Below, one piece after another: positions 5,265 to 57,893 of a stretch of 64,000 bases of DNA. Each line of letters starts with the position of its first letter. Within the stretch, counting starts at the first letter, position 1. This stretch comes from Rubrivivax sp. (GTDB taxonomy: Bacteria > Pseudomonadota > Gammaproteobacteria > Burkholderiales > Burkholderiaceae_C): assembly GCA_045864135.1 (NCBI GenBank), contig BTVT01000023.1:1964-65963 (forward strand), read 5' to 3'. The notes under the pieces were generated by a model. It did not search any database. It had not been told where the DNA came from and was given only the letters and a program-made list of their open reading frames with translations. The position numbers and the translations under genes are program-made.

Positions 5265-5337
5265 GCGTGCCGAGCCCACCAAACGACCGCCGGGCCGTCC
5301 AGCGCGCAGCGCCGCGCCGGCCCGGCCCTTGCGCTCC

Positions 5338-54710: not shown

Positions 54711-54784
54711 TGGAGCGGGCGAAGGGAATCGAACCCTCGTATGAAGCTTGGGAAGCTGCCGTTCTGCCATTGAACTACGCCCGC
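54711..54784 (-). tRNA. tRNA-Gly (CCC)
   Basis: GCGGGCG/CGCCCGC acceptor stem, CTTCCCAAG anticodon loop, GGTTCGATTCC T-loop, encoded CCA. Confidence 0.97.
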
Positions 54785-54942
54785 AGCGCGCCCTGGAAGG
54801 GCACCCGCGGAGGATACATCAGCGCAGGCGACTCCAGCCACTCTCGGTCGCCCTCTCCTCCTTCGACCCCGGCCCGTGGCATCGCCGCTGCCTTGACCCG
54901 CACCAAGTCCGCCAGGCCGGGGGCAGGCTAGAGTGCCCGCCG

Positions 54943-55353
54943 ATGACACGCGTGGCAGGGCTGGTGAATCGGCGCAAGTGGGCATCGGCCTTGCCGGTGC
55001 TGCTGGCGCTGCTGGCGCAGCTGCTGCTGGTCCAGTTCGACAGCTGGCACCACGCGCGCATGCTCGCGCAGGGGCCGTGGTCGACGCAGGTGTGCCGCAG
55101 CTCGGTGGCGACCGATGTCTTCGCCCGCGCGGAGTCAAGCACCAGCCTCACCGATCAGGCACCGGGCGGCACGGGGCACGGCCCGACCTGCTGCTCGCTC
55201 GCCGGGCTGGCCACGCCGCTGCCAGCCGACGTCGCCGGCCACGCCATCGGCCCCGCCACGGGCTCGGAACGGCCGCTCCCGTCGACCCGCCAGCCGCGGG
55301 CCGAGACCCCGTCGCGGGTCACCGCGGCGCGGGGTCCGCCCACGCGCGCCTGA
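54943..55353 (+). CDS. DUF2946-like leader protein (CruR/CutF-like)
   Basis: N-terminal TM segment, xVCxS, HGPTCC, Pro-rich spacer, C-terminal ARGPP; sits upstream of a TonB receptor. Confidence 0.72.
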   Translation: MTRVAGLVNRRKWASALPVLLALLAQLLLVQFDSWHHARMLAQGPWSTQVCRSSVATDVFARAESSTSLTDQAPGGTGHGPTCCSLAGLATPLPADVAGHAIGPATGSERPLPSTRQPRAETPSRVTAARGPPTRA

Positions 55354-55592
55354 GGCCCCACCTCCCCTGCCCGGCAGACGCTGACCCGGCGCCAGCCGGA
55401 GGGGAGGCGTACGGCTGCCGATCCCCCTCCGAAGCACGCGCGCCCCGGGAGTCCGTCCCCGGGCGGATGCGTGCGCCGACTCTCCCCTGCTGCCCGAGCC
55501 GCGCTGGCCGCGGCCCTTGCGCCGCGCCTGTGTCGCGCCCGTACCGCGCCTGCCTCGCGCTCGTGCAGCACCGATCCGAATCCGAATCCCTC

Positions 55593-57893
55593 ATGAACTC
55601 ATCGACATCGTTTCGCGCCGGTCGCGCGGCACGCCCGCTGCGCCGCGCGCGCCTTCCCCACCGTCAGGACCTGCTGGGCCTGGCCATCACGCTGCTCGCC
55701 GCGGCGCCCGCCGCGGCGCAGAGCTCGGCGCGGGACACCGTGCTGATCCAGGGCCAGCGCGCGGCCGCAGCCGGCGCGCCGACGACCCTCGACGCTGACG
55801 CCCTGCAGCGCCTGCGCGCGGCGCAGGGCGACAGTGCGGCGCTGCTGCTCCGCGTGCCCGGCGTATCGCTGCAGGCGGCCGGCGGCGCTTCCAGCCTGCC
55901 GGCGCTGCACGGCCTGGGCGGCGACCGCGTGCGCGTCAGCGTCGACGGGCTGGACCTCATCGCCTCCTGCCCCAACCACATGAACCCGCCGCTGTCCTAC
56001 CTCGATCCCGCCGCCGTCGCCTCGCTCGAGGTCTACGCCGGCATCTCGCCGGTGAGTGCCGGCGGCGACAGCATCGCCGGCAGCATCGTCGCGCGCACGG
56101 CCGACCCCGTCTTCGCGCCGGATGAACAGACCTTGCTGACGAGCGGCGAACTCGGCGCCCATGCGCGCAGCAACGGGCGCGGCATGGGCGTCAATGCCCG
56201 CGCCAACCTGGCCAGCTCGACCCTCGCCCTGGCCTACGGCGCGGCGCGCTCGCGCGCCGACAACTACCGCGCCGGCGGGGACTTCAAGACGAGCGTGCAG
56301 ACCGGCCGCAACGGCCACACACTGCCGCTGGACGAGGTCGGCTCCAGCGCCTACGACACGCGCAACCAGACGCTCACCCTCGCCCATCGCGGGCCACGGC
56401 ACCTGCTCGAGGCGCGGCTGGGCTACCAGGAGGTGCCCGAGCAGCTCTACCCGAACCAGCGCATGGACATGCTGGGCAACCGGCAGTGGCGCGGGCAGCT
56501 GCGCTTGCAGAAACGCTTCGACTGGGGCCGCTTCGAGGCGCGTGTGTTCCAGGAGGACGTCGACCACACGATGGACTTCGGCGCCGACAAGCGCTTCTGG
56601 TACGGCAGCCATTCCGGCACCGGCAGCGCCTGCAGCCCGGTGCGCTTCGCGGGTGATCCCCAAGGCACCTGCGCCGCCGGCATGCCGATGAAGACGGCCA
56701 GCAGCCACCGCGGCCTGAGCTCGCGCGCCGACATCGCGTTCGGCGACAGCGACACGCTGCGCCTGGGCGCCGAGTGGCTGGCCTATCGGCTGGACGACTG
56801 GTGGCCGCCTTCGGGCGGCGGCATGGGCCCGGGGACCTTCGACAACATCCGCGACGGCCGGCGCGATCGCGGCGTGCTCTACGGCGAGTGGATCGCGCGC
56901 CCGAGTTCCGCCTGGTCCTGGACGGCCGGCGCCCGCGTCGAACGCGTGCGCAGCGACGCCGGCACGGTGCACGGCTACAACACGCTGAGCAGCGCGCCGG
57001 GCGGCCAGGCGGCCGAAGCCGCCGCCTTCAATGCCTCGTCCCGGCGGCGCACCGACGACAACCTGGACCTGTCGGCGATCGTGCGTCACGCCTGGTCGAG
57101 CACCGTCGACCTGGAGGGCGGCATCGCGCGCAAGGTGCGCTCGCCCAACCTGTACGAGCGCTACACCTGGTCGTCCTGGGCGATGGCGGCGACGATGAAC
57201 AACTTCGTCGGCGACGGCAACGGCTATGTCGGCAACCCCGATCTGAAGCCCGAGGTCGCGCATACCGTCTCGGCGACGATCGACTGGCACGCCGCCGACC
57301 GCTCGTGGAGCCTGCGCGCCACGCCCTACCTGACCGAGGTCGACGACTACATCGACGCCGTGCGCCGCAGCACCTGGACCGCGGGCAAGTTCAACGTGCT
57401 CGGCCTGGCCAACCAGTCGGCGCGCATCGTCGGGCTGGACATGACGGGCCGGGCAGCCCTGCCCGGCCTGCCCGGGGGCGAATGGACGCTCGAGGGCGTG
57501 CTCAACCTGACCCGCGGCCGCAACCGCGACAGCGGCGACGACCTGTTCCAGATCATGCCGGCCAACCTGCGCGTGTCGCTGAGCCACCGGCTCGGGAGCT
57601 GGCAGAGTGCGCTGGAAGTGGTGTCGGTGGCGCCCAAGAGGAGGATCAACGACGTCCGCAACGAGATCGCCACGCCCGGCTACACGCTGCTGAACCTGCG
57701 CACGGGCACCACCTGGGGCCGCGTGCGCCTGGACTTCGGCATCGACAACCTGTTCGACCGGCACTACGCCCTGCCGACCGGGGGCGCCTACATCGGCCAG
57801 GGGACGACGATGAGCATCAACGGCGTGCCCTGGGGCGTCGCCATGCCCGGGCCGGGGCGTTCGCTGTACCTGGCGGTCCAGATGGGGTTCTGA
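55593..57893 (+). CDS. TonB-dependent receptor, OprC-like copper transporter
   Basis: Plug with CPNHM (CxxxM) and HTM (HxM); [16 protein letters not shown]-terminal Phe. Confidence 0.88.

Follow-up and report, generated by a model that had tools for sequence, protein, structure and literature searches.

A putative arrest-peptide leader of the CruR/CutF family with adjacent cysteines precedes an OprC-like receptor gene in Rubrivivax sp.

The closest described relatives of the gene analyzed here are two small exported proteins of the DUF2946 family: CruR (Bp2923), the product of the first gene of the Bordetella pertussis cruR-crtA(bfrG)-bp2921 locus (Roy et al. 2022, PMC9426467), and CutF of Rhodobacter capsulatus (PMC9973294; bioRxiv 10.1101/2025.02.05.636593). 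Homologs have been counted at more than 2000 (Roy et al. 2022, PMC9426467) and at 5334 (Ozturk et al.), and the family proteins, which have not been detected as stable products, act in cis. In this work, we analyzed a stretch of 64,000 nt from Rubrivivax sp. (contig BTVT01000023.1 of assembly GCA_045864135.1, positions 1,964 to 65,963; hereafter the window), in which a 136-codon open reading frame (ORF), referred to as the leader, precedes the gene of a TonB-dependent receptor that resembles OprC of Pseudomonas aeruginosa. Sequence comparison points to the leader as a divergent member of the DUF2946 family in which a vicinal Cys-Cys pair stands where CXXC is canonical. We consider it on balance probable that it is a diverged CruR/CutF arrest peptide which, through copper-controlled arrest and Rho-dependent attenuation, controls the OprC-like importer in cis.

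The two described leaders act in different ways. The arrest of CruR has been toeprinted with the two Pro codons of its RAPP motif in the P and A sites of the ribosome (PMC12992588). RAPP lies three residues from the end of the protein, there are 45 intervening residues, and this spacing matters (Roy et al. 2022, PMC9426467); in addition, the rut (Rho utilization) site of cruR has been mapped within a C>G bubble (Roy et al. 2022, PMC9426467). CutF is likewise an exported copper sensor of the DUF2946 type that acts as a nascent chain, and about 45 residues separate its Cys motif from a C-terminal stalling motif rich in Pro. It differs in that the two motifs are CxxxC and PPP, in that its short spacer has a stem-loop covering the start of the next gene, and in that it depends on elongation factor P (EF-P). 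Moreover, the target of CutF is an induced detoxifying oxidase, whereas the target in the window is an importer and the spacer there is long and unstructured. The locus in the window is laid out as follows (positions are those of the window):

54890–54942, forward strand: conserved upstream block (with TTGACC at 54893–54898 and TAGAGT at 54929–54934)
54943–55353, forward strand: leader gene (upstream ORF), 136 aa, ATG at 54943 and TGA at 55351–55353
54982–55035, forward strand: N-terminal hydrophobic segment, predicted to serve export or anchoring, residues 14–31 (hydropathy and family consensus)
55093–55095, forward strand: codon of Cys51, the semi-conserved family cysteine (..QVC..) (alignment column and lineage variants)
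55177–55194, forward strand: H79-G-P-T-C83-C84, putative metal-sensing site (spacing and invariance)
55330–55341, forward strand: R130-G-P-P, putative arrest motif, residues 130–133, followed by T-R-A-stop (sequence)
55151–55751, forward strand: C>G bubble (rut-like) over the leader 3' half, the spacer and the receptor 5' end (base composition)
55354–55592, forward strand: spacer between the two genes, 239 nt, where regulated termination is presumed to occur
55593–57893, forward strand: OprC-like TonB-dependent receptor, 766 aa, ATG at 55593
55968–55982, forward strand: C126-P-N-H-M130, plug half of the CxxxM-HxM site
56565–56573, forward strand: H325-T-M327, barrel half of the CxxxM-HxM site

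This arrangement recalls cruR in several respects. In both, a short gene opens the unit and encodes a protein with an export segment at its N-terminus and, around residue 51, a semi-conserved Cys. The Cys sensor, putative in the window, precedes an R-x-P-P motif by about 45 residues, and three more residues separate this motif from the stop. A long, C-rich spacer follows, of 162 nt in Bordetella and 239 nt in the window, and the C>G bubble begins within the 3' part of the leader. A TonB-dependent copper importer, OprC-like in the window, is encoded downstream. The locus described here departs from that of Bordetella in its motifs, with Cys-Cys where CruR has CXXC and RGPP where CruR has RAPP; in its receptor, which is OprC-like (with a Cys/Met/His site) and not of the CrtA type and is followed by no PepSY_TM gene; and in the Pfam score of its leader, which is below the cut-off. 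The 136-aa ORF, the transmembrane segment, Cys83-Cys84 and the terminal RGPP listed in a preliminary description of the window are all present, and the receptor does lie downstream of the leader, although at 239 nt and not at the 240 nt given there.

The small ORF is a genuine coding gene. Its GC content at third codon positions (GC3) is 0.91, versus 0.94–0.96 in the neighboring genes and 0.60 in the overlapping antisense ORF. Its ortholog on the metagenome contig L001 is 80% identical and has the same ATG, 136 codons and zero indels, and indels do occur in the non-coding flanks. Omega between the window and L001, calculated by the Nei–Gojobori method (NG86), is 0.58 in the leader frame versus 1.5 and 0.81 in the shifted frames. 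The 28 codons with replacements between the two sequences are clustered, their frequency per codon being 0.41 in three linkers and 0.07 in the family-conserved blocks (Fisher p = 5e-6, the motif blocks having been drawn after the alignment was seen); the conserved blocks also contain ten silent changes, of which G80, T82 and C84 account for three, and residues 18–31 show zero replacements between the two lineages. The third-position composition, the conserved frame and length, the dependence of omega on the frame and the clustering of replacements thus identify the leader frame as coding. In the protein database, 14 distinct variants of the leader occur on dozens of contigs, one of them annotated in 'Rubrivivax sp. 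SCN 71-131', and 35 of the 136 positions vary among them, with C51 and RGPP among the invariant ones.

These data also bear on the possibility that the ORF is no regulator, but either a small exported or anchored copper-handling protein acting in trans or a chance ORF in GC-rich DNA. The window is 72% GC and spurious long ORFs abound throughout it, which would favor the latter. Such an explanation is nevertheless highly improbable in view of the GC3 of the leader compared with that of the antisense ORF, the conservation of frame and length, and the match to an independent profile given below; furthermore, the cis action of the family and the absence of detectable stable products speak against a protein working in trans, and the terminal RGPP together with the C>G spacer constitutes a regulatory anatomy.

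The preliminary description had related the leader to the DUF2946 leaders CruR and CutF, and proposed a search with the hidden Markov model of that family. Against Pfam DUF2946 (PF11162), the alignment is full-length (profile positions 2–117 of 117), but the score, 14.7 bits (E = 0.053), is below the gathering cut-off of 23.7; the L001 ortholog (P0004) reaches 20.5 bits. A HMMER scan of 1.84 billion representative proteins returned two relatives only, the ortholog cluster and P0005, the latter being 39% identical (phmmer E = 9.5e-4) with a canonical CTTC, a RAPPSLA end and 33.8 bits on PF11162. We also fetched 80 loci with orthologous receptors (51–74% identity; from Rubrivivax, Azohydromonas, Dechloromonas, Azonexus, Rhodoferax, Chromatiaceae and others; designated by L numbers), many of which have a small ORF ending in R[AG]PP upstream of the receptor. 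A profile built from 23 leaders located 5' of these receptors, with the window and L001 sequences excluded, found the window ORF at E = 2.5e-7 (26.7 bits) and the L001 ORF at 1.7e-6 among 832 candidate ORFs. As this independent match is accompanied by the GC3 of real genes, the resemblance is above chance.

Other traits of the leader agree with the family. Its N-terminal segment matches the family consensus RR..W.LALLALL, and by hydropathy it qualifies as a signal peptide or an N-in/C-out segment (residues 14–31, Kyte–Doolittle 19-mer peak of 1.88, with R10, R11 and K12 directly before). Cys51, one of the three cysteines of the leader together with C83 and C84, falls in an invariant column of the leader alignment (A1). 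The leader is also the first gene of a unit of two genes, with a divergent tRNA-Gly gene upstream and the OprC-like receptor gene as the second member downstream. Taken together, the end-to-end Pfam alignment, the match to P0005 and the 23-leader profile bear out the proposed relation, and by sequence comparison the leader is classified as a divergent DUF2946/CruR/CutF homolog in the position typical of the family. The same genome has a second DUF2946 gene (G000:C1:176912-177247; L007:1501-1836), with CVLC...RGPPSLG and 38.4 bits, which is directly followed by a PCuAC copper-chaperone gene, with a DsbD/CcdA-like gene on the opposite strand. As a separate observation on the family, three of the loci have two tandem DUF2946-type leader ORFs before one receptor (L084:1209-1592 and 2254-2793; L099:1212-1616 and 2429-2839; L106:1204-1542 and 2265-2696).

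No CxxC is present in the leader, which reads H79-G-P-T-C83-C84 at the corresponding place. C83 and C84 stand 46 and 45 residues before Arg130, and the cysteines of canonical CxxC leaders stand 45–48 and 42–45 residues before it; the pair therefore occupies the canonical place, and MAFFT puts C83 in the nearly invariant column of the first Cys. DUF2946 leaders without CxxC are common (PMC9973294), and 29 sequence clusters with differing Cys/His ligand sets have been distinguished (Ozturk et al.). Among the sequences collected here, CCxxC occurs in two relatives (L031 and L098), the leader of L099 has a lone Cys, and a large subfamily, mostly from Chromatiaceae, has a single Cys in EHC[SA]ALKL[YF]QM, 49 residues before RAPP, and precedes the same OprC-like receptor family (L050, L051, L058, L063; proteins P0010-P0123). 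This single-Cys subfamily accounts for 109 of the 123 clusters returned by a word-indexed profile search, which was so dominated by 'EHCSALKLYQM' that no unbiased frequency of Cys-Cys can be derived from it; most of its members are without a precomputed Pfam match in the search table.

The form with Cys-Cys only was seen in one narrow lineage, and no Cys-Cys ortholog was found in forty related genomes. The nearest species-level ortholog of the receptor (L029, 74% identity, Burkholderiaceae MAG_31) is on a contig that starts within the leader tail (...ARGPPSPHA followed by the stop, L029:1-31), without the Cys motif, and the contigs with P0005, the nearest canonical leader, end right after that gene. 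Three routes to the pair fit the alignments equally: a change from HCPxC to HGPxCC, the loss of the last Cys from CCxxC, and a two-codon deletion in a sequence such as GPACPVCS (L045). The claim that Cys-Cys replaces CxxC is thus right in that the motif is truly non-canonical and at the canonical distance, but it describes a local variant and no new class.

The leader terminates in R130-G-P-P-T-R-A-stop (55330-55353). The RGPP had been regarded as a variant of the arrest motif, a view that does not hold: it is common in canonical members, being the tail of 10 of the 23 canonical relatives examined and of the second DUF2946 gene of the same genome, and it has been published as the strongest motif of its kind, with the most robust and EF-P-resistant arrest among RAPP-like motifs in several contexts (2025 Fujiwara-type mutagenesis, PMC12992588). 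In alignment A1, the R of the motif is nearly invariant and PP is invariant. Small exported proteins with RAPP or RGPP are enriched 5' of TonB- and copper-related genes (PMC12992588). The window leader resembles the RAPP/RGPP arrest peptides ApdA, ApdP, ApcA and the SecM variants (PMC12992588) in its C-terminal RGPP, in being a small exported protein and in having a same-strand gene downstream; unlike these, which are Sec and YidC monitors, it has a putative metal-ligand motif and precedes a copper receptor. Leaders with other ends were also observed: four Rubrivivax-type leaders with HCALC end in T-G-P-P (L036:2471-2839, L049:1041-1892, L073:2106-2759 and L105:2297-2761), and that of L088 (2308-2721) ends in Q-A-P-P. 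These TGPP and QAPP leaders are without the Arg that is essential for arrest in the RAPP peptides studied.

The region between the leader and the receptor is of the kind expected for CruR. The bubble at 55151–55751 is the longest run in the 64-kb window with an excess of C over G of at least 8 per 100 nt; it begins in the Pro-rich 3' half of the leader and has 25 YC dimers (Y, pyrimidine) per 100 nt versus a background of 15. The spacer itself is 46% C and 32% G, and it is 85% identical to that of L001, approximately as conserved as coding sequence. Of the 15 orthologous loci with an adjacent leader, 13 show the same skew (median C/G of 1.42, versus 1.02 for the locus). A scan of the spacer found no intrinsic terminator, an Rfam scan found tRNA only and neither a riboswitch nor a leader RNA, and the leader 3' end and spacer together fold no better than shuffled sequences (z = -1.3). 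Rho is encoded in the genome (680 bits). Beside these features, a GAATCC hexamer is repeated just before the receptor ATG (55577–55588), with two copies in the window and three in L001; relative to a GTG farther upstream, at 55563, this difference of one unit would preserve the reading frame.

These characteristics allow a comparison between attenuation by Rho and a translational control such as that of CutF, in which the metal would prolong stalling and the stalled ribosome would melt the RNA that hides the receptor start, so that copper would act as an inducer. A member of the DUF2946 family, CutF itself, works in this way, and the receptor ATG is without an obvious Shine-Dalgarno sequence. 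However, with a spacer of 239 nt, a structure at 55593 lies beyond the reach of a ribosome stalled at 55336–55341, short spacers are associated with the CutF mode and the folding is not better than by chance, and a copper importer induced by copper makes little physiological sense. Control of this type is very unlikely here, and the length and lack of structure of the spacer favor the CruR mode, attenuation by Rho.

The regulated gene would be the receptor, in which Plug and barrel domains were detected. The only sequence match in PDB is OprC of P. aeruginosa, at about 20% identity, with ACPNRM aligning to SCPNHM. As in OprC/NosA (PMC8610252; TIGR01778), the protein combines a CxxxM in the plug with an HxM in the barrel, at residues 126/130/325/327 versus 143/147/323/325 in OprC, whose copper ligands are Cys143, Met147, His323 and Met325 (PMC8610252). 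C126, M130, H325 and M327 are invariant in all of the 77 alignable orthologs, and so is the plug motif CPNHM, which has an invariant extra His where OprC has Arg. In the AlphaFold2 model (predicted local distance difference test, pLDDT, 74; predicted template modelling score, pTM, 0.78), residues 127–130 have a pLDDT below 50, so that the model is unreliable exactly at CPNHM. With this model as query, Foldseek ranked OprC chains 1 to 28 (best E = 7e-45, template modelling score 0.83), and the next transporter followed at E = 1.7e-36. The score on TIGR01778, 105.7 bits, is far below the equivalog cut-off of 472.45, and the receptor is for this reason assigned, from its sequence, to a separate OprC-like subfamily, with orthologs 51–74% identical across Betaproteobacteria and Gammaproteobacteria. 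The OprC-like receptor with CPNHM and HTM of the preliminary description is therefore supported by the best matches in both sequence and fold and by the invariance of the ligands. Roy et al. (2022, PMC9426467) already name OprC-type receptors as one of the kinds of gene found after CruR homologs.

A receptor of the CrtA (BfrG) type was also considered. In CrtA, neither Cys nor Met is conserved and the cavity contains an invariant His, and a PepSY_TM gene usually comes next (PMC12914433). Judged by this published description, and not by a direct alignment with CrtA, the window receptor is not of this type, since its Cys/Met ligands are invariant and it is followed by no PepSY gene.

How the leader might work is what we infer by analogy with the described systems, and this concerns the stalling of the leader peptide, the binding of copper by Cys-Cys, the sign of the regulation and the dependence on Rho. 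The leader would be translated, its N-terminal segment would engage the membrane or the Sec machinery, and the ribosome would arrest very close to the stop codon, its P site occupied by Pro132 and its A site by Pro133. With copper scarce, the stalled ribosome would keep Rho off the C-rich RNA of the leader 3' half and the spacer, and the receptor would be transcribed. With copper plentiful, the nascent chain would bind copper just outside the exit tunnel through Cys83 and Cys84, perhaps also through His79; the arrest would be released, the ribosome would terminate, and Rho would stop transcription in the spacer, thus turning the importer off. From a physiological standpoint, it makes sense for copper to repress an OprC-like importer, and vicinal Cys residues are reported to bind Cu(I) in the case of Cox17.

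Several points weigh against this proposal. The hallmark CXXC is missing, the Pfam gathering score was not reached, and neither a promoter nor a Shine-Dalgarno sequence was found for the leader. The overall omega is relaxed (0.58), and the contrast in replacements between linkers and motif blocks carries the limit noted above on how the blocks were chosen. For about 45 of the 77 receptor orthologs, the upstream 1.8 kb contains no DUF2946-like ORF; the leader is consequently an optional add-on to the OprC-like receptor family, and the receptor can be controlled in other ways. As Cys-Cys is confined to a narrow lineage, there has been little time for selection to show. Finally, the altered arrangement of cysteines could be copper-blind. 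In CruR, the C90S+C93S substitution left expression in place but removed most of the response to copper (Roy et al. 2022, PMC9426467), which makes such a sensor conceivable.

In that event, the leader would belong to the same family and retain the arrest, but the loss of CxxC would have left a constitutive arrest peptide, the receptor would be permanently anti-terminated, and any copper control would reside elsewhere. Besides the CruR precedent, the restriction of Cys-Cys to one young lineage and the overall omega fit this idea. It is, however, difficult to reconcile with the conservation of the site: HGPTCCSLAGLATPLP is fully conserved at the protein level despite three silent changes, H79, C83 and C84 are invariant in the 14 variants while T82 and 34 other positions vary, and the exact spacing to RGPP has been kept with no indel. 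Although it deserves some weight, we regard a copper-blind leader as unlikely.

A sensor that works but responds to a changed signal has also to be weighed, whether the signal be another thiophilic metal, only Cu(I), or the redox state, read through the vicinal Cys-Cys and His79. Adjacent cysteines do not readily form an intramotif disulfide of the CxxC type, and the ligand set differs from the canonical one; published clusters of the family with other ligand sets adjoin nickel and cobalt genes, and the second, canonical CxxC DUF2946 gene before the PCuAC gene means that the two leaders could be specialized. Against this, the receptor under control has the invariant copper-specific CxxxM/HxM, which argues for copper, and another ligand has no direct support, so that a changed signal appears quite improbable. 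The differing metal specificity suggested in the preliminary description is speculation only. A related but separate proposal, which we find rather unlikely, is that the vicinal Cys-Cys and His79 form a nascent-chain sensor that differs in function from the canonical one. Having no easy intramotif disulfide, the pair might stay reduced and ligand-competent in the oxidizing periplasm, or it might bind Cu(I) with a different geometry; if so, its threshold, redox dependence or metal selectivity would differ from those of the canonical CxxC leader before the PCuAC gene.

The start region of the leader was also compared. The upstream block at 54890–54942 comprises 53 nt with 5 differences from L001, and farther upstream there is a 23-nt indel; the block is presumed to be the leader promoter, its 5' untranslated region or a weak ribosome-binding region. 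The TAGAGT 8 nt 5' of the ATG and the absence of a GGAG-type Shine-Dalgarno sequence before that ATG, both reported previously, are seen in the sequence. A leaderless start had been suggested from them; a sigma-70 scan, however, called no promoter and found no -35 at 17 bp from TAGAGT, and the 30 nt between TTGACC (54893) and TAGAGT exceed the distance expected of a -35/-10 pair. A leaderless start is therefore unsupported, and TAGAGT might just as well act as a weak ribosome-binding site. Gene callers begin the ortholog at codon 17 (54991–54993 in the window; ATG in L001, TTG in the window), after an AGGTGG-like site. That start would drop the conserved RR..W N-region, which is why the 120-aa database entries of the leader are probably truncated gene calls.

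A further feature of the locus lies 5' of the leader:

54711–54784, reverse strand: tRNA-Gly(CCC) gene, transcribed away from the leader, identical in sequence in L001

Its promoter must share the 158-nt gap with that of the leader. On the same strand as the tRNA gene, opposite to the leader, a GGDEF gene comes next. On the 3' side, the receptor is followed by trmB, then by uppP/bacA on the opposite strand and by a TetR gene; no PepSY or chaperone gene was found after the receptor, in agreement with the absence of such genes stated before. The gene order is identical in the metagenome contig L001 (CoA-transferase, aldehyde dehydrogenase, GGDEF, tRNA, leader, receptor, trmB, bacA, TetR).

Altogether, the module made up of an arrest-peptide leader, a long C-rich spacer and a copper TonB receptor is known and widespread. 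The novelty of the window lies in the exchange of CXXC for Cys-Cys in a single lineage: the pair stands at the usual distance from RGPP, seems to be under constraint, and coexists in the genome with a canonical leader. The locus can be viewed as a natural 'mutant' to be set against canonical leaders before the same receptor family and against the canonical copy in the same genome; it offers a useful natural test of the tolerance of the sensing motif and no new mechanism. If the Cys-Cys leader is still copper-responsive, the CruR/CutF switch needs thiolates at the right distance and not the geometry of CxxC, which would narrow the models of how the signal passes from metal binding outside the tunnel to the peptidyl-transferase center; otherwise, it would be one more instance of a described regulatory module before an OprC-like copper importer.

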